IMG/VR virus record: IMGVR_UViG_3300031555_004891
Origin: a virus
Lineage: Duplodnaviria; Caudoviricetes
DNA: 64,000 nucleotides
Direction: 5' to 3' (one strand)
The position numbers and the translations under genes were made by a program. Below the pieces are notes generated by a model. The model was given only the letters and a program-made list of their open reading frames with translations, made no database searches and had not been told where the DNA came from. Positions 13,073 to 64,000 of the stretch are shown here, piece after piece (the stretch's first letter is position 1; every line of letters begins with the position of its first letter).

Positions 13073-14989
13073 ATGCCTGTAGATACAACAAAAACAAAAT
13101 TAGATAAAAATGAAAGCTCCGTATATCGAGAAGAGCCTGCAGTTTATAATAAAGTTATCTAGGCTGCACCTGCTCCAGAACGTGAGATAGGTATTGATAC
13201 TAAGCAAACTATGTATCAAAACATTATTCAAGCTGGTACAAATAATCTTTTAGATATCTCGTCTCTAGATGCTTTCACAAATATATCACAAAGCAGAGAT
13301 CAAGTATATGCTTTACTAGATACTATGTGTCAAGATTCTACCGTAGCAGCTGTTTTAGAGACTTATGCAGAAGATGCTACTGAGCCAAATGATCAAGGCC
13401 AAATAGTTTGGGTAGAAGCATCTAATCCAGATGTGCAGAAATATGTACAATTTTTATTAGATGCTATGAACGTAGATAAAAATATATATAAATGGACATA
13501 CTCACTTTGTAAATATGGTGATATATATCTAAGATTATATAGAGAGTCAGATTTTGAGGAAGCTGATTTATTTAATAGTTTTAAAAATAAAAAGAAAACA
13601 GCTCTCAATGAAGCTGTTAAAATAAAAGCATATTCTAAAAATGATCACTATGTAAATTATATGGAAATGCACTCAAATCCAGCAGAAATTTTTGAGCTTA
13701 CAAAACTAGGTAAGACTTATGCTTATATAAAAGCTCATGTTAACTCAACACAAACATTTGATTCTGTTACTGGATATTATCAAGCTAATAATTTACTTTC
13801 TTATAGATTTAAGCAGAGTGATGTTGAGTTACACTCTGCTACAGATTTTGTACATGGCTGTTTAGAAGATAATTCTAGCAGAACACCAGAAACAGTATAG
13901 ATTTTTATAGGTGATAGTGATAAAGAAGCTGATGCTTTAACTTACACAGTTAAACGTGGCCAATCACTTTTGTATAATACATTTAAAACTTGGCGAGAAT
14001 TACAACTTCTCGAAAATTCTGTTTTACTTAATCGTATTACAAAATCATCTATTGTTCGTGTAATTGGTGTAGAAGTAGGTGATATGCCTAAAGAAATGGT
14101 AGGCCCACATTTGCAAGGTATAAAATCCTTAATCGAACAAAAAGCTGCTATAAATGCAGGTAACTCAATAAATGAGTACACTAATCCAGGTCCTATAGAA
14201 AATAATATTTATGTACCTACTCACGAAGGTGTTGGTGCTATTACAGCAAGCCAAATCGGTGGTGATGTAGATGTTAAATCTTTAGCTGACCTAGATTATT
14301 ATCAAGATAAATGGTTTGGATCACTTCGTGTTCCTAAACAATATTTCGGTGTAACAGATGATAACGCCGGATTTAGCGGTGGACAATCATTATCTATTAT
14401 TTCATCACGTTATGGTAAAATGGTTAAACGTATCCAAAGCACAATGACTCAATTGCTTACAGATGCTGTTAACTTATTGCTTTTAGATAGAAATCTTAAA
14501 ACGTATGTTAACGAATTTAATATTAGAATGCTTGCACCTACTACTCAAGAAGAGTTAGATAGACGTGAAAATTTAAGTAATAAAGTTGGTGTTACAACTG
14601 ATATTATGAATATGCTAGGTGATATAGACGATTCTGTAATTAAGCTTAAAATTATGAAATCTCTATTATCAAAAATTTTAACTGATGGCGAAGTTATAGA
14701 CTTAATACAACAACAAATAGATAATTTAGAAGAGCAGCAAGAAGCAGAAAATAATCCAGAAGAAACAACAGATGATATTGATTTGAGTGATGATTCTGGA
14801 GATATGTTTGCAGATGCATCTTCTGAACCTAGTGAAGCTGAATTAGATTTAGGATTAGGTGTTACAGATGACTCTGAAACTGATTTAAGTTTAGATAGCG
14901 GAGAAGAAACGATTGAGCCTATGGATACTGGAGCTACTTTACCTACACCAGATGAGTTAGGCGTAGATATGACTACTTTTGAAGGTTAA
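13073..14989 (+). CDS. Portal protein, T4 gp20-like (638 aa, TAG=Gln)
   Basis: Motifs WRELQLLENSVLLNRI, VEVGDMPK, DLDYYQDKWFGSLRVPKQY. Two TAGs join the fragments. Directly follows terL. Confidence 0.88.
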
Positions 14990-15083
14990 CATAATTTCAT
15001 ACAGATTGATGTTATTTAAAACCTTAATTCTTCAAAAAAAAAATAAAAAAAAAATCAGTTGGTTATACCATGGAGACTAAAAT

Positions 15084-15554
15084 ATGATTTCAAAAAATGA
15101 TCTAGTTTTAATATTAACAGATATGTCAAAAAGTGGGTTTGATACAAAAAATCAAATTACAAAAGTTTTAACAACTAAAAATATACCTATGGATGTTATA
15201 AAATTTATAAATGAAAATAGAGAAATGGATTTAAGTAAATTTTATACTCATATCAGAAAAAGTTATAACTAGAAAAAATCTAAATTATACATAAACATAA
15301 TGAAAGAAATAGAAGATGTTAACGAAGTGCTTACTACGTTAGCATCTCTAAATCTACAAATCCTTTTATTTAGTAAAAATGTAGATGATAAACAAATGTT
15401 TTTAAGACATAGTAGAGCTTCTGAAATTACAAAAGTTTTAACTATGTATTATGAAAATTATGATTTAGCAAATTGTGTAAAATTATTACATTTGATAAAA
15501 GCTGATATTGTAGCTTTCGAATTTTTAAGTGGACAACGTACAACTGTTGCTTAA
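15084..15554 (+). CDS. Hypothetical protein (156 aa, TAG=Gln)
   Basis: Two same-frame ORFs joined at TAG 15270-15272; GGAG RBS. Confidence 0.7.
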
Positions 15555-15776
15555 GTAAAATAAGTTATATATTTATTATTATATTTTTAAACTAGTTATC
15601 TTTTTAAATAATTTATCTTTTAAACTAGTTTAAATAATTAATTATTATATATATAATATATTATAATATTATCTTAAACAACACTTAAACATAATTTCTT
15701 TGTAAAAATTCAAATTTTTATATGCTAAATTATATGTAAAACTGTACAAAACAGTGTAAAAAGGAAGAAAATATAC

Positions 15777-55997: not shown

Positions 55998-56777
55998 ATG
56001 AGTAAAGTAAAAAATTGGTTTAAGTAGGAATGGAATGAGATCAAAACACTTTTAAGTAATGTTAACCCTTTAGTTATGACCTTTTTTATTCTAGGTGTTG
56101 TGGCTATGAATTTGCTAGCTAATAAGTCTATTGATTTAAGTTTTCTTCCTGGAAATGATGTTAATAACGGTGAGTTTGGTTGGTTAGCTTTAGATTGTGG
56201 CTTTTTAATCTCATGGTTATGCTTTTTTTCAATGGACAATATAGCTAGACGTTTCGGTCCTAAAGCATCAACCCAAATGACCATTGTTGCTATAGTTGTT
56301 AATTTAATTGTTTGTGGAATATTTCTGCTAGCTGGTATAATTCCTGGAACATGGGGTGAAAGTTATGTAGAAAATGGTGCGATTATAAATACTGCTTTAG
56401 ATAACACAATATCTGGAAGTTGGTATGTATTAATGGGATCAACTGTAGCATTTATTTGCTCAGCAATAGTACATGGGTTAGCTAGTACAGCTATAAGCAA
56501 AATCTTTAAGGATAAAGAGACACTTAAAGCATACGCAGTATGTAGTGCAGTAGGAACTAGCTTAGGCCAATTTGTAGATAATATGATTTTTGCTTTAATT
56601 GTAAGCTTAAACTTTTTTGGTTGGAATATTTTACAATGCATAATGTGTTCAATTACTGGTATGATATTTGAGTTTCTAATGAGTGTAATTTTTGTTCCTA
56701 TTGGTCATAAGATATATAAGAATGATCAAGAGCGAGCAAATAGAAAAGATGAGGTAGGATTCGAATGCGAGTTTTAA
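55998..56777 (+). CDS. yhhQ: VUT-family (YhhQ/COG1738) queuosine-precursor transporter (259 aa, TAG=Gln at codon 10)
   Basis: Multi-TM protein with MNLLANK, DNIARRFG, GSTVAF, SLGQFVDNMIF motifs. Confidence 0.8.
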
Positions 56778-57424
56778 TTACAGGAACATCTAAAGGAATA
56801 GGAAAAGCTATAGCTGAAAAATTTATTTATGAGCATGCTGATTGGGAAATCATTGGCTTTGATAGACTAGATTCTACTATAGATAAACCTAATTACAAAC
56901 ATTATAAAGTAGATGTTAGAGATGTAGAAAATTACCCAGATATTTCTAATATAAATATTATAATTAACAACGCTGGAACTCAGAATGAAGATGATATTAA
57001 CATTAACTTAAAGGGTGCGATTTCTATTACCGAGCGTTATGGAATCCAACCTGGAATTAAAAGTATCTTAATGATTGGGTCAGCGAGTGCACATACTGGT
57101 GATGAATTCCCTCAATACGTTGCTTCGAAAGGTGGTTTAATAGCTTACACAAAAAATGTAGCTAGAAGAATTGCTAAATATGGGGCAACCTGTAACAGCT
57201 TAGACTTTGGAGGTGTTTTAACCGAGTTAAATAAACCTGTTATGGAAAACAAAGAATGCTGGGATAAGATAATGGAAGTAACAGCATTAAAGCGTTGGAT
57301 GGAACCAGAAGAGACAGCTGATTGGGCTTATTTTGTTACTGTAATCAACAAAGGTATGACTGCGCAAACGCTTCTTATTGATAATGGGGAAGCTTCGATT
57401 GTAAACAATTTCCAATGGTGTTAA
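56765..57424 (+). CDS. Short-chain dehydrogenase/reductase (SDR)
   Basis: TGTSKGIG, NNAG, catalytic S and YVASK. Overlaps the transporter stop. Confidence 0.88.
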   Translation: MRVLITGTSKGIGKAIAEKFIYEHADWEIIGFDRLDSTIDKPNYKHYKVDVRDVENYPDISNINIIINNAGTQNEDDININLKGAISITERYGIQPGIKSILMIGSASAHTGDEFPQYVASKGGLIAYTKNVARRIAKYGATCNSLDFGGVLTELNKPVMENKECWDKIMEVTALKRWMEPEETADWAYFVTVINKGMTAQTLLIDNGEASIVNNFQWC

Positions 57425-58916: not shown

Positions 58917-60356
58917 ATGTTGCTAGTAGATTATTATTTTTATATTATTAAAGTATGCTATAAAAATAAGTGTGTATTTAAGTTTGGCGAATCTAAAACT
59001 GATAGACCAAAAAAGCTTTTAAAAGAATATGAAAATAAAAAGAATGTAACTGCAAAACTTCTCTACACAGATACACTTCCAAATAATGGGTATAATAGAT
59101 TATCTGATAAAGTTATTCATAAATATATTTCTAAAATGTATGAAAAAGCTAATAAGTATGAGATTCAAGTAGAGTTGGGTACAACTGATGGAATAACTGA
59201 GTTTTTTATTTGCAAGATTGGAGAATCTGATGATAAACTAGTTGAAAACTTAAAAAATATTGTATATACTATTGATACTAATCATTATAAAATTGCAGTA
59301 GAGTATTTAGATAATATCGAAAAAATACATTTTCCTCAAAACCATCAGGTCTGCTTCTATTATACTGATGCGATGGAAAAATTAGGTAATTTTCAATTAT
59401 GTGATGAGAAAGATAAACTAATAGTACTTATCGGTCAATTTACACCACAATATATAAATAGATTTGCATTCAGAAATAAAATAATAATCTGGCAAGATTC
59501 TGGTGAGACAGAATTTGCTTATGAGGATTCGAGATGTAATCAAAACATCACTTACATTTCAGATTTGGAGACATTAATTAAGATGAATCAAGACAATAAA
59601 TTTAATTATGTTTTAAGCAACCCACCATACGAATTTGCAAGCCAAATAACAAAAGCTATAATTGATAATGTAAACTTTGATACTTTTGTTAATTTAATGC
59701 CATTAAGTGATTATAATAAAGATAGTTTGTATCGATATGTAAGCAAGTTTGAGTTGGTTGACCCTACTAAATTTAAAGATGCGAAAATCACTAAAAATTT
59801 AAACATAGCAGTTATTGAACCAGATATAGTAGATAAATATTCCGATAGAGAATCTTTTGAAATAGAATCTTTTGATCCTAAATTTAAGTTATTTTATCAA
59901 ATTAATACTAATAGAGAGCATTATTGTTTATCTAGCTTTGCTTATGCTTCTAAATTGAAGTTTCAACCTAATCCATATACTGATGTGTATTTAACATTAA
60001 GAACAATCTTTGATGGTGTACATAAAACTAATAACTGCGCTGATTATAAATGGAATATTGAAAAAATTACATCAAATACGTTGTTAATAAAGAATTTTGG
60101 CGGTGAAGATTGTTTGTGGGGTTCTATATTTAGATTTAAAACCGAAATAGAGCATAAAAATTTTTGTACCTGGTGGTATCACGGTAATTTAAGCCACAAG
60201 CTAATAAAAGGATTAAACAAGACTAGTGGCACTCCAAAAATTGCGTTACCTAGAATTGATTGGTCTCGAACAGATGTAGAATATACCGATGAATATGTTT
60301 TAGAACAAATGGGATTAAAATGGAATGAAAATAAAGATGGGGTAGAGAAATTATGA
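58917..60356 (+). CDS. Fusion of a GIY-YIG/T5orf172-like N-domain to an NPPY methyltransferase catalytic/TRD half
   Basis: YIIKV...FKFGES...TEFF N-terminus; FNYVLSNPPY; no recognisable SAM-binding motif I. Confidence 0.6.
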   Translation: MLLVDYYFYIIKVCYKNKCVFKFGESKTDRPKKLLKEYENKKNVTAKLLYTDTLPNNGYNRLSDKVIHKYISKMYEKANKYEIQVELGTTDGITEFFICKIGESDDKLVENLKNIVYTIDTNHYKIAVEYLDNIEKIHFPQNHQVCFYYTDAMEKLGNFQLCDEKDKLIVLIGQFTPQYINRFAFRNKIIIWQDSGETEFAYEDSRCNQNITYISDLETLIKMNQDNKFNYVLSNPPYEFASQITKAIIDNVNFDTFVNLMPLSDYNKDSLYRYVSKFELVDPTKFKDAKITKNLNIAVIEPDIVDKYSDRESFEIESFDPKFKLFYQINTNREHYCLSSFAYASKLKFQPNPYTDVYLTLRTIFDGVHKTNNCADYKWNIEKITSNTLLIKNFGGEDCLWGSIFRFKTEIEHKNFCTWWYHGNLSHKLIKGLNKTSGTPKIALPRIDWSRTDVEYTDEYVLEQMGLKWNENKDGVEKL

Positions 60357-60622
60357 AAACAAAAATTTGGGAAAAAGATTTTAATGTATGTGGATTTAAA
60401 GCAGAGGATAAAGAACTTCTTCGTAAATATGTACCAAATATGGATACATGCTTATCTATTAAAAAGATAGCAAAAAGCGCTGCTGAGTTATCAATGCTTG
60501 ATGGTACATCTTATTATGTATCCTGCTATATTGGTGGAGTAAATAAAGGTCATATTTGTTGTATACAAACAACAGAAAAAAGATCTGCTGACAGGAAACG
60601 TTTATATCCTATAAAAGAATAA
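60353..60622 (+). CDS. Hypothetical protein
   Basis: ATGA-coupled 89 aa ORF. Confidence 0.55.
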   Translation: MKTKIWEKDFNVCGFKAEDKELLRKYVPNMDTCLSIKKIAKSAAELSMLDGTSYYVSCYIGGVNKGHICCIQTTEKRSADRKRLYPIKE

Positions 60623-60674
60623 TGTGCAGGATATTCAATAATAAAATAAAAAAAAATAGGAAGTATAAACAAAA

Positions 60675-61037
60675 ATGTCTAACTATATAACAATTATTTC
60701 AAAAGAAGATATAAAATATTTACCAGACTGGATAGCATTTGTTATGTTTGCTATTCTAGCAGCTATTGTAATTATTCCAACAGTTATTAGTTGGGCTATA
60801 GTAAAGAAAAAGAATAAACCATGGATTAATATACTTTGTACTGAGGTTATTTCTGGTGCTGTTGCTATTATAGGTGTTATCATTTTTGTTTTTACTGTGC
60901 AACCACATATGTTAGAACCATCAGGAAAATATACATATAAAGCAACTGTTGATAAAAATAAAATTACTGTTTCAGAATATGAAGATTTTATTGAGAAGTA
61001 TAAACCTAAATTTCAAGATGGTTATTATTACTTCTAA
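60675..61037 (+). CDS. Two-TM membrane protein
   Basis: Two hydrophobic helices. Confidence 0.6.
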   Translation: MSNYITIISKEDIKYLPDWIAFVMFAILAAIVIIPTVISWAIVKKKNKPWINILCTEVISGAVAIIGVIIFVFTVQPHMLEPSGKYTYKATVDKNKITVSEYEDFIEKYKPKFQDGYYYF

Positions 61038-61054
61038 GCAGAAGATATAGAGAA

Positions 61055-61270
61055 ATGAAAATATATAATATAGGAAATTATAGAGTACATCTCAGCAATA
61101 AGAAGAAGCCTGAGTCAAATTACAGCAAATTTATTGTTTATAAAAATGGGGTAAAAGGTGACCTAGATGGTGGCTACTTGAGATGGGAAAACGAAGACGT
61201 GATTGTTCCTAGATTAACAAAAGTATTAAAAGAATGGGATAACCTAGATGTTGGAAAAGAAAACATTTGA
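61055..61270 (+). CDS. Hypothetical protein
   Basis: 71 aa ORF within the operon. Confidence 0.5.
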   Translation: MKIYNIGNYRVHLSNKKKPESNYSKFIVYKNGVKGDLDGGYLRWENEDVIVPRLTKVLKEWDNLDVGKENI

Positions 61271-61982
61271 TTTAATTATAAGCAACCCACCTTATAAATA
61301 TGGGAATGAGGTTATTAAAAATACTTTATAGGTAACCGGAGAAAAAGCCGTTATACTAATGCCTGCTGCTAAATATAAAGCAGATAGGCTTTTCTCCCAT
61401 ATCGAGAATATTGAGTTAGCTGATAAAAATTTCTTTAAAGATAAGAAGCAGGATATTAAACCTGATTTAAGCATAGCTGTATGTGTAGCTGATAGTAATG
61501 ATGAAATAACTTTTGAAAAGGTTATGGATTCTCTATTACCAGAAGATATAGCGCAATTTTTGGACTTAAATAGAAAATTGAGTAAGAAATATGATCGATT
61601 AACTTATATGAAAAGTATGAGAGAAAAAGTTTCTGGAAATAAAGAATATTTTATGGTTCCTTATTGGCAGCATGTTGGTTGTGCTAGATCTGATAAAAGC
61701 GTAACTAGAAAATATAATTTTGGCGATACAGATGCGATAAATAAAATATTAAACAGTGATATGTGCTATAGCGTTTTGAAATTTCCTTCTTCTGCTTATT
61801 GGAATAATTTCTTTAATTGGTATTATAAAAATGATATTCAAGATTATATTTTATTAAACTGCTGTGATTTATTATATCCTAGTTACATATGGTTCCCGCA
61901 GATAGATTTTTCTATAGATAGAGATTATGCAAATTTAACTTTTCTTCAACTTTTAGAAATAATGTTTTCGGAAATAAAGTAA
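61248..61982 (+). CDS. Adenine methyltransferase catalytic/TRD half (NPPY; 244 aa, TAG=Gln)
   Basis: Read-through of TAG 61329-61331 gives N-terminal MLEKKTFDLIISNPPY. The C-terminus resembles that of 58917. Confidence 0.75.
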
Positions 61983-62029
61983 CACAAAATATGATCCTGT
62001 ATAAAGATATAAAGGGGTAATGTACTTTT

Positions 62030-62455
62030 ATGCAATTATCTAATGAAATAAAAGAAAAAATAAAAACAGAATACACAGAGTGGTTTAATTCTCAATATGG
62101 TGATAAAACATTAGAAGAGAGAAGAAAATTAGGTGCTTTTTTCACACCGCCTGAGCTAACCATTAAAATGATAGAGAAATTCGATTCTATAGAAAACAAA
62201 ACTATTCTAGACCCTACATGTGGTACAGGTAATTTATTAGCAGGTTGCATAATAGCAGGTGCTAATCCAGAAATGATTTATGGAAACGAATATGATCCAA
62301 CATTTGTACAGTTATGTAGAGATAGATTGAAAAAATTAGGTGTTCCTGAGTCTAATATACATGAGGGTGATGCACTTAATCCAGAAGCATTAAAGAGAAG
62401 TAATTTCACAGATAACTGGAATAAAGATGTTGGTTGTAAAACAGAATTATGGTAA
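62030..62455 (+). CDS. Stand-alone SAM-binding half of an N6-adenine methyltransferase
   Basis: GAFFTPPEL (motif X), ILDPTCGTGNLL (I), IYGNEYD (II), GDAL (III). Ends before any NPPY. Confidence 0.8.
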   Translation: MQLSNEIKEKIKTEYTEWFNSQYGDKTLEERRKLGAFFTPPELTIKMIEKFDSIENKTILDPTCGTGNLLAGCIIAGANPEMIYGNEYDPTFVQLCRDRLKKLGVPESNIHEGDALNPEALKRSNFTDNWNKDVGCKTELW

Positions 62456-62464
62456 AAAGATATT

Positions 62465-62623
62465 ATGAAAATTTGGAAAATGAAAGATTGTTTTTATTCA
62501 GATATCATAAAAGAATTAAATAATTTAGAAAAGAAACATGCTGTTGTTAGAGAAATTACAGCTAGTAATGAACACTGGTTTACAATATTTTACACTATAG
62601 AAGATAAGGTAGAAGAAGAATGA
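62465..62623 (+). CDS. Small hypothetical protein (52 aa)
   Basis: Open frame with ATGA coupling to the GNAT gene. Confidence 0.5.
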   Translation: MKIWKMKDCFYSDIIKELNNLEKKHAVVREITASNEHWFTIFYTIEDKVEEE

Positions 62624-63102
62624 GATTTTGTAATGTATGTGATTGCACAGATGCTAAAAATGATTGCAAGACATGTAAATATAGAGAAGAATGTGATTAT
62701 GTTTGGGTAACAGAAATTTGGAAAAAGAATCAGAAGCTCTTAACGCCATTAAACCCAGGTTGGGTTAAGCCTGATTTTAAAAATAATCACGTAGTAACAG
62801 TTAGTGGTAAATATGATTTTTGTGTTTTTAACGTACCAAAAAAGACTGAGACTATAACTATAAATGACATTTGTGTTGATGAGGCTGGAAGAGGTCAGGG
62901 TTTATCTAAAAAACTTATTTATGGGTTAATGGAAAAATATGATCGAGATATTATAGCTAAATGCGTAAAAGATAGCTCAGCAGAAGATTTTTGGTCTCAT
63001 ATGGGCGAAAAGATAGCAGAAGAGCCTGGTAAGCAACGTCCTTTATCTGTGTATAAGGTACGTAATGAAAAAATGAGTATGAGAAAACAGGAATTATTTT
63101 AA
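62620..63102 (+). CDS. GNAT-family acetyltransferase with Cys-rich N-terminus
   Basis: ICVDEAGRGQGLSKKLI acetyl-CoA loop; AEDFWSHMG. Confidence 0.8.
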   Translation: MRFCNVCDCTDAKNDCKTCKYREECDYVWVTEIWKKNQKLLTPLNPGWVKPDFKNNHVVTVSGKYDFCVFNVPKKTETITINDICVDEAGRGQGLSKKLIYGLMEKYDRDIIAKCVKDSSAEDFWSHMGEKIAEEPGKQRPLSVYKVRNEKMSMRKQELF

Positions 63103-63172
63103 TAATTTTATTAAATATGAAAGCACTGTTTTTGTATAAATATAATGAAACATAGACATTTTGGAGGAAGTA

Positions 63173-64000
63173 ATGGAAAAACTAATCAATCAAGATTGGA
63201 CTAATCCTTTTACTAATTGTAAAATAGGTGAAGATTATTATGGAATTATAGCTGCTGGCGAAGGTGTTAAAAATGTAAAAATGCCTGATGGGACTATTCT
63301 TGATGCTAGCGATGTTAAGAGAGATTTGGGTTATCCACAACTTTTTGCTTGGAATTTAGAAGGAAAAGCCTTGTTGGAATGGGTTGAGTATTTAGATAAA
63401 AATCCTGATTGTCCCTGTAAGTTAGTTGTTGACTCAGGTGCGTATTCTATGTGGAGCCGTGGAAAAGAATTTGATATGGATGAGTATATCAATTTCTTAA
63501 ACAGTAATGATGTTATAGAAAAAGCTTTTTGGGTAGCAGAAGCTGACGTTATCCCTGGAAGTATGGGTGTAGATCCAACAGAAGAAGAAAGAGCAGCAGC
63601 ACCTGAAAAAAGCTGGGAAAACTTCTTATATATGGTAGATAGAGTTAAAATTCCTAAGAAAATTGTACCTATTTTCCATCAAGGTGAAGATATCAAGCAT
63701 TTGAGACGAATGTTAGCTTATAGATATCCAGATGGTGATTTCATTCCATATATTGGAATTTCTCCTCGAAATGATGTCCATGTTAATGAAAAATCAAAAT
63801 GGTATGAGTATATTTGGAAAGTTATTTATGAAGATTGTGCAGCTTTAGGTCGGGATATTCCATTGACTCATAACTTTGGTATGACTACTATAGCTCTCAT
63901 GGAGCAGTATCCTAGTTACACATCAGATTCGACTTCATGGATTAGAAGCGCATCTTTTGGTAATATAATGATTATAGTAAATGGTAAAATAAAAACTGTA
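63173..64000 (+). CDS. dpdA: TGT-fold 7-deazaguanine DNA transglycosylase (DpdA-like), 3'-truncated
   Basis: Absent from the ORF track because it has no stop in the window. GGAGG RBS; motifs VVDSGAYS, DVIPG, VPIFHQGE, YIGIS, THNFGMT, SDSTSW. Confidence 0.82.
   Translation, partial: MEKLINQDWTNPFTNCKIGEDYYGIIAAGEGVKNVKMPDGTILDASDVKRDLGYPQLFAWNLEGKALLEWVEYLDKNPDCPCKLVVDSGAYSMWSRGKEFDMDEYINFLNSNDVIEKAFWVAEADVIPGSMGVDPTEEERAAAPEKSWENFLYMVDRVKIPKKIVPIFHQGEDIKHLRRMLAYRYPDGDFIPYIGISPRNDVHVNEKSKWYEYIWKVIYEDCAALGRDIPLTHNFGMTTIALMEQYPSYTSDSTSWIRSASFGNIMIIVNGKIKTV

Follow-up and report, generated by a model that had tools for sequence, protein, structure and literature searches.

Gamma-class N6-adenine DNA methyltransferases (PF02384/PF07669; M.TaqI, CamA, M.BseCI and HsdM) are single chains in which motifs X and I-III, the NPPY motif (motif IV), the remaining motifs and a C-terminal target-recognition domain (TRD) follow one another in the order X-I-...-VIII-TRD. 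Circular permutation classically opens such enzymes where motif III meets motif IV; the beta class runs IV-VIII, TRD, X, I-III in one chain. A phage enzyme may also be encoded in pieces, as in phage Aeh1, where nrdA was split through a homing endonuclease. Amino-methyltransferases as a whole form circularly permuted alpha, beta and gamma classes, for which duplication and fission-fusion routes have been proposed (PMC3320104, PMC7544214). Natural splits are described for two C5-cytosine DNA methyltransferases, M.AquI and M.EcoHK31I, each made of two separately encoded polypeptides cut in or after the variable region; the small subunit of M.AquI holds motifs IX-X and that of M.EcoHK31I motif IX alone (PMC3404938). 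Here we describe a locus in a 64,000-nucleotide stretch of the virus record IMGVR_UViG_3300031555_004891 (Duplodnaviria; Caudoviricetes), hereafter the window, in which two genes divide between them the motif set of a gamma-type N6-adenine DNA methyltransferase. One encodes a 141-amino acid (aa) S-adenosylmethionine (SAM)-binding half, and the other a 244-aa NPPY/TRD half; a third gene encodes a 479-aa paralog of the latter.

The locus shares with gamma-class enzymes motifs X, I-III, NPPY and a C-terminal TRD, and models of a single-chain relative (P0187) and of the 479-aa protein show the seven-stranded class I fold plus TRD. It differs from them in being cut into two genes between motifs III and IV, with the catalytic half first, and in that one SAM half accompanies several NPPY/TRD genes. 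Like M.AquI and M.EcoHK31I, it spreads one motif set over two separately encoded polypeptides; unlike those C5 enzymes with one partner each, it carries N6-adenine motifs, has its break where the cofactor sub-domain meets the catalytic one, and has fused and permuted relatives within the same family. The window gene order, like that of the fusion proteins P0185 and P0137, matches the beta class; however, the sequences belong to gamma families and not to Pfam N6_N4_Mtase (PF01555), whose match reaches only E 0.089 and 13 bits against a 26.7-bit cut-off. As with Aeh1 nrdA, a phage enzyme lies in separate functional pieces, and in one relative (L002) an HNH gene stands between the halves; in contrast to nrdA, no endonuclease gene separates the halves in the window, and their order is reversed. 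Our literature searches found no description of a split N6-adenine methyltransferase.

In our view, the 141-aa and 244-aa proteins are likely to be subunits of one gamma-type (M.TaqI/CamA/HsdM-like) N6-adenine DNA methyltransferase that is naturally split, and its SAM subunit may also serve the 479-aa paralog. The basis is sequence anatomy, conservation, purifying selection, fused and permuted relatives and the relatives' fold, from which we infer assembly, activity, target and sharing.

Gene layout and TAG recoding

The elements of the two split genes are as follows.

62030..62455, + strand: stand-alone SAM-binding half of a gamma-type N6-adenine DNA methyltransferase, 141 aa
61248..61982, + strand: NPPY/TRD half, 244 aa, whose first element is motif IV
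61284-61295, + strand: NPPY of the 244-aa gene
61896-61913, + strand: P.ID[FW]S motif near the C-terminal end of the 244-aa gene
61329-61331, + strand: in-frame TAG inside the 244-aa gene, read as a sense codon (probably Gln)
61997-62004, + strand: CTGTATAA promoter-like motif, 26 nucleotides 5' of the SAM-half ATG

The NPPY/TRD half comes first in the window and the SAM half follows; a hidden Markov model scan of all six frames found no further copies of either half in the 64 kb. Motifs X (aa 37-42), I (DPTCGTG, aa 61-67), II (aa 83-89) and III (aa 110-116) were located in the SAM half, which ends at a TAA after ...ELW and lacks NPPY, confirming the proposal, made in a preliminary description from sequence, that it stops before motif IV. 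The Pfam N6_Mtase match of the SAM half spans profile positions 20-121 of 311 (E 2.7e-9, 37 bits; cut-off 20.4). Exhaustive phmmer searches collected 509 cluster representatives at E<=1e-3, mostly stand-alone proteins of 100-250 aa. Among the best 150, 120 are shorter than 250 aa, and 16 in all carry an [NDS]PP[YFW] motif. R31, T39, D61, G65, G67, E87, D89 and R99 are near-invariant in this family. The SAM half is 100% identical among three strains (the window, L004 and L009), and its ratio of nonsynonymous to synonymous substitution rates (dN/dS) is 0.05-0.11.

The 244-aa protein has NPPY at aa 13-16, with seven residues preceding the NPPY strand. Stand-alone relatives of 244-251 aa were found at 93, 89 and 60% identity, and dN/dS is 0.16-0.25. 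Pfam Eco57I matches it only at E 0.02, below the cut-off.

The same description had the 244-aa gene opening at motif IV and being whole only if TAG is a sense codon, which agrees with TAG recoding throughout the window and with the residues that relatives carry at this site. The open reading frame (ORF) contains one in-frame TAG, and under translation table 11 its only start lies at 61359, leaving out NPPY. The TAG is retained in L004 and in the same-species contigs L005-L010; the same codon position encodes N in L002 and D in L003. Across the window, + strand ORFs add up to 17362 aa when TAG is a stop and to 20806 aa when it is translated, and translating TGA makes hardly any difference. A single TAG is the sole separator of many ORF pairs, which are joined when it is read through; 41 of the 93 + strand ORFs of at least 60 aa stop at TAG, and many go on in frame. 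The source is a stop-codon-recoded gut or rumen phage, in which TAG is presumably decoded as Gln, as in recoded gut phages.

Recoded TAGs are dense up to about 47 kb (mainly positions 1-47000) and rare thereafter. Only two genes of the late region contain them (55998-56777 and 61329), and the 244-aa gene is one of these two, so its full-length translation may depend on a suppressor. The window contains no tRNA genes and hence no suppressor tRNA. The window has 11 copies of the promoter-like motif where 4.9 are expected; none of 100 shuffles reached that count, and nine of the 11 copies are on the + strand.

Relatives of the two halves

Some proteins contain both halves in one chain. In P0187 (394 aa), residues 1-115 correspond to the SAM half (38% identity, E 1e-24) and residues 159-353 to the 244-aa protein (34% identity, E 3e-28), which is the normal order. 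Its AlphaFold2 model has a confident seven-stranded fold, with a mean predicted local distance difference test (pLDDT) value of 84 and a predicted template modelling score of 0.85. The pLDDT falls below 50 only at residues 151-158, between the two matches, and at residues 392-394; in this model, the point corresponding to the split is a predicted disordered linker. Foldseek neighbours of the model were CamA, M.BseCI, PacII, BsaXI and Type I HsdM, every one of them a gamma-type N6-adenine DNA methyltransferase; with phmmer, P0187 matched no PDB sequence. In phrog_799, the SAM half matches positions 193-247 and the NPPY half positions 283-318.

About seven of the 16 motif carriers, such as P0096, P0154 and P0187, are fused in the normal order. 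Three others (P0137, P0158 and P0185) are fused in the reversed order, NPPY/TRD and then SAM half; P0185 and P0137 translate by table 11, and P0185 was found in two assemblies. Since P0096 (normal) and P0137 (reversed) carry the same C-terminal TRD motif, both topologies exist among close kin.

Relatives in which the halves are separate genes retain both of them. L003 (60% identity) and L004 have the NPPY gene with the SAM-half gene directly after it, and the window arrangement was found in 23 contigs from several samples, some of them longer than 200 kb. L002 has the opposite order, with the SAM gene 2.8 kb ahead of the NPPY gene; one of the five genes between them encodes an HNH endonuclease (6154-6957 of L002), which hints that mobile endonuclease genes help rearrange these pieces. 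It had been asked whether relatives keep the split and vary the number of NPPY genes: the split is held down to 60% identity, and NPPY/TRD genes number from one to three. The further claim that this is not a simple frameshifted gene also stands, given the reversed order, the separate conserved genes, dN/dS values of 0.05-0.25 and the fused relatives in both orders. Joining of the products by trans-splicing or frameshifting was considered and rejected because the order is reversed, the gap in L002 is 2.8 kb and no intein-like sequence was noticed. It is quite likely that the 141-aa and 244-aa proteins form one enzyme.

In such an enzyme, the break would fall at the motif III/IV junction. The small subunit would consist of the N-terminal helix and strands beta1-beta3 and bind SAM, and the 244-aa subunit would supply everything from beta4 onward: the NPPY adenine pocket, the rest of the sheet and the terminal DNA-recognition domain. 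The exposed beta1 edge of the small subunit may pair with beta4 of the large one and so rebuild the active site. The TRD would set the target site on phage DNA for methylation, presumably as protection from host restriction.

Among the cultured phages of INPHARED, tblastn found nothing for the 479-aa protein and one weak match for the SAM half, and at the DNA level only the ligase gene gave matches. Pattern scans of IMG/VR with single proteins gave almost no matches, and a metagenome scan gave at least one fragment.

The 479-aa paralog and sharing of the SAM subunit

The third gene of the locus has the following parts.

58917..60356, + strand: 479-aa protein (P0005) with a GIY-YIG/T5orf172-like N-domain, degenerate Rossmann half, NPPY, TRD and hyperconserved C-terminal tail
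58917..59276, + strand: GIY-YIG/T5orf172-like domain, aa 1-120
59334..59582, + strand: degenerate N-terminal half (N'), aa 140-222
59619..59630, + strand: NPPY (motif IV), invariant in the family
59877..60236, + strand: variable TRD cassette, aa 321-440

Residues 223-473 of this protein align end to end with the whole 244-aa protein (BLASTP E 1e-12, 23% identity), and a profile of the 479-aa family matches the latter at E 3e-39 over profile positions 223-457; its C-terminal half is therefore a second paralog, as first suggested. The family comprises at least 64 clusters. In its alignment (A1), N235, P236 and P237 are invariant, Y238 is near-invariant and the C-terminal tail is invariant or nearly so; residues 140-222 contain no invariant or near-invariant column. 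Pfam Eco57I matches 18 of 24 family members, and Pfam GIY-YIG matches two of 24 relatives (P0056 and P0060) in the same alignment columns as the N-domain. The window's own 479-aa protein gave no Pfam match for the N-domain and no PADLOC match, and the family profile gave only marginal matches to PDB sequences, around NPPY.

The AlphaFold2 model of the 479-aa protein (pLDDT 86) places aa 1-120 in a GIY-YIG-like beta-beta-alpha-beta-alpha pattern. Strands 168-172, 188-192 and 211-214 occupy the places of methyltransferase beta1-beta3 without a G-x-G loop. With VIA-align, residues 142-452 superpose on residues 20-413 of M.TaqI (Z 12.5, 264 residues) and residues 140-307 on whole KsgA/Dim1 catalytic domains (Z 13). 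The protein thus keeps the motif order of single-chain enzymes, but has no recognisable motif I, and profile-profile comparison of the SAM-half and 479-aa families detected no similarity in the decayed half. Comparing P0005 with its strain variant P0006 in 20-residue blocks gives 85-100% identity (mostly 100%) for aa 1-320 and 441-479 but 15-45% for aa 321-440, which amounts to a TRD cassette swap.

Gene neighbourhood connects this family to the SAM half. A SAM-half gene lies directly downstream of the 479-family gene, within about 2 kb, in 10 of 12 lineages (the window, L011, L012, L013, L015, L020, L021, L024, L026/27 and L028), and the two genes often overlap by a few bases. Partners counted here include a 380-aa type without the N-domain as well as the 479-type. 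In L011, L012 and L013, the 479-type protein is the sole NPPY protein inside 10 kb; in the complete 218-kb phage that holds L019, the SAM half lies 35 kb from the 479-type gene. L015 has one SAM half and two NPPY-family genes, and in L004 the 479-aa gene is replaced by another gene.

Two further loci vary the theme. A fragment, L022 (6726-9000), holds three tandem genes that each open at the NPPY strand (one with NSPY) and a GIY-YIG-like small ORF, and has no SAM half. In L023, from a phage that has no SAM half of the usual kind, a gene at 1565-2230 encodes a 221-aa product that has motifs X and I and NPPF and no TRD; it lies just before the gene for a 272-aa NPPY/TRD half.

The preliminary description had pictured a shared SAM subunit pairing with exchangeable catalytic/specificity subunits. 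What survives is the variation in NPPY number and TRD beside a constant SAM half; what does not is the 479-aa protein as a bare half. Because NPPY genes and TRD cassettes vary while the SAM half stays identical, one SAM subunit with exchangeable NPPY/TRD subunits is plausible from sequence comparison, and strain variation points to a fixed hub with changing partners. Whether the SAM half also serves the 479-aa paralog, whose decayed half it would have to displace or bypass, is an evenly balanced judgement that draws on gene neighbourhood only. More tentatively still, and with somewhat more doubt than confidence, the small SAM half could be the common hub for a changing set of NPPY/TRD proteins that includes the decayed-half proteins it must displace; its terminal KTELW could tether it to a replisome hub shared with neighbouring DNA-modification enzymes, and the family could preserve every intermediate on the way to circular permutation.

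Alternative explanations and the meaning of the split

Several observations weigh against a split enzyme with a shared SAM subunit. The model of the 479-aa protein shows, rather than a bare half, a whole M.TaqI-like fold in which the cofactor half is decayed, so that there is no free beta4 edge for simple complementation; as the protein has an N-terminal half of its own, simple fold complementation by the SAM subunit is impossible unless that half is displaced. L014 has no SAM half inside 10 kb. The complete 28.8-kb phage in which L025 lies, which has direct terminal repeats, carries an NPPY/TRD half, but neither a SAM half nor an N6_Mtase match was detectable in it. Conversely, L039, L040 and L043 are SAM-half loci without an NPPY-family gene inside 6 kb. 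Finally, the SAM half ends in KTELW, and its GNAT-like (160 aa) and DpdA-like (353 aa) neighbours end in KQELF and KTELW (tail positions 62444-62452 and 63091-63099 in the window and 15307-15315 in L005). Among the 91 ORFs of the window, only one other ends in L plus W/F, in a different context (...IVLF). By sequence, K[TQ]EL[WF] looks like a C-terminal docking peptide shared for a partner other than the NPPY subunits: its presence on unrelated neighbours suggests a common third party.

The alternative that best withstands the evidence is that the SAM half has the 244-aa protein as its sole client and that the 479-aa protein acts without it, which we regard as less likely than not. The 479-aa protein could then be a methyltransferase that needs no partner and whose cofactor site is unusual. 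Or it could cut or read specific DNA sequences independently of SAM, with a dead methyltransferase-plus-TRD module directing the GIY-YIG-like domain in a Type IIG-like arrangement. Its complete fold in cis, the GIY-YIG Pfam matches of P0056 and P0060, the TRD cassette swapping expected of an arms-race protein, and the locus L014 all fit such independence. However, NPPY is invariant in the family and not one residue of the cofactor half is conserved, and 380-aa members that lack the GIY-YIG-like domain still adjoin a SAM half. In L011, L012 and L013, moreover, the gene of the sole NPPY protein overlaps or lies close to the SAM-half gene. Complex prediction for the 479-aa protein with the SAM half scored 0.00 and is uninformative in either direction.

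It is quite improbable that the 141-aa protein is a stand-alone SAM binder with another role, such as SAM sensing or sequestration, or a factor tethered to the replisome via KTELW, with NPPY genes nearby for historical reasons only. The three SAM-half loci without an NPPY-family neighbour and the tail common to the GNAT-like and DpdA-like neighbours would suit it, but single chains join the SAM half to an NPPY/TRD half in both orders, the NPPY neighbourhood is kept across lineages whose SAM halves are 40-80% identical, and a bare three-stranded half-Rossmann fold would probably not be stable alone. Least probable by far is that a rearranged methyltransferase gene is falling into decay here, or that the pieces stem from an error of assembly: the reversed order, the in-frame TAG and a +1 frameshift of the 244-aa gene in L009 and L010 might suggest so, but dN/dS is 0.05-0.25, lengths are held at 60% identity, the 23 contigs come from separate samples and TAG is sense across the window. 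Nor is the pseudogene-like decay seen that had been raised at the outset alongside intact relatives; an intact gene does exist in P0187, yet the low dN/dS applies to both halves.

In these two assemblies, one extra nucleotide in a T6C4 run shifts the reading frame of the 244-aa gene (L009 12465 and L010 4352, equivalent to window 61396); the remaining ORF is open, at 95.5% DNA identity. A recent loss, phase variation or a sequencing error could each account for this.

The flanks of the locus (55998-57424 and 62620-64000) encode a Vut_1/YhhQ-type transporter, an SDR protein, the GNAT-like protein and the DpdA-like transglycosylase. The latter matches phrog_887 (E 2e-42), and the phage DNA probably also contains 7-deazaguanine bases. 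Upstream in the same phage (L005 4258-7008), DNA polymerase A is called as two genes separated by a gap of about 285 nucleotides, the first of 460 aa (exonuclease and part of the polymerase domain) and the second of 360 aa; the gap is larger in L009. This may be another split or interrupted gene. In a distant relative, L013, an IS605 OrfB/TnpB-like gene (14727-15773) lies 2.7 kb downstream of the NPPY/SAM-half pair.

The family contains normal, split, decayed-half-plus-split and permuted forms among close relatives, for which we found no earlier description. A decayed half joined to a catalytic half and followed by a fresh cofactor half would be the intermediate predicted by the duplication route to circular permutation, and the reversed fusions would be its end point. 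If the split enzyme is as we propose, it would therefore offer a natural test case for the origin of circular permutations, and ready-made split halves for targeted-methylation tools. Proteins that keep NPPY but have lost the cofactor site, beside a stand-alone cofactor half, pose a structural question of their own. The known natural split DNA methyltransferases named in earlier work are two C5 enzymes (PMC3404938); here, an N6-adenine enzyme appears to be cut through its Rossmann fold at the cofactor/catalytic boundary, and many uncultured phages retain it as two genes. If the SAM half is indeed a hub, methylation specificities could be changed or multiplied via NPPY genes and TRD cassettes while the cofactor subunit stays constant. 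These findings suggest a way in which phages could diversify DNA methylation, and with it restriction escape, by swapping only the specificity subunit.

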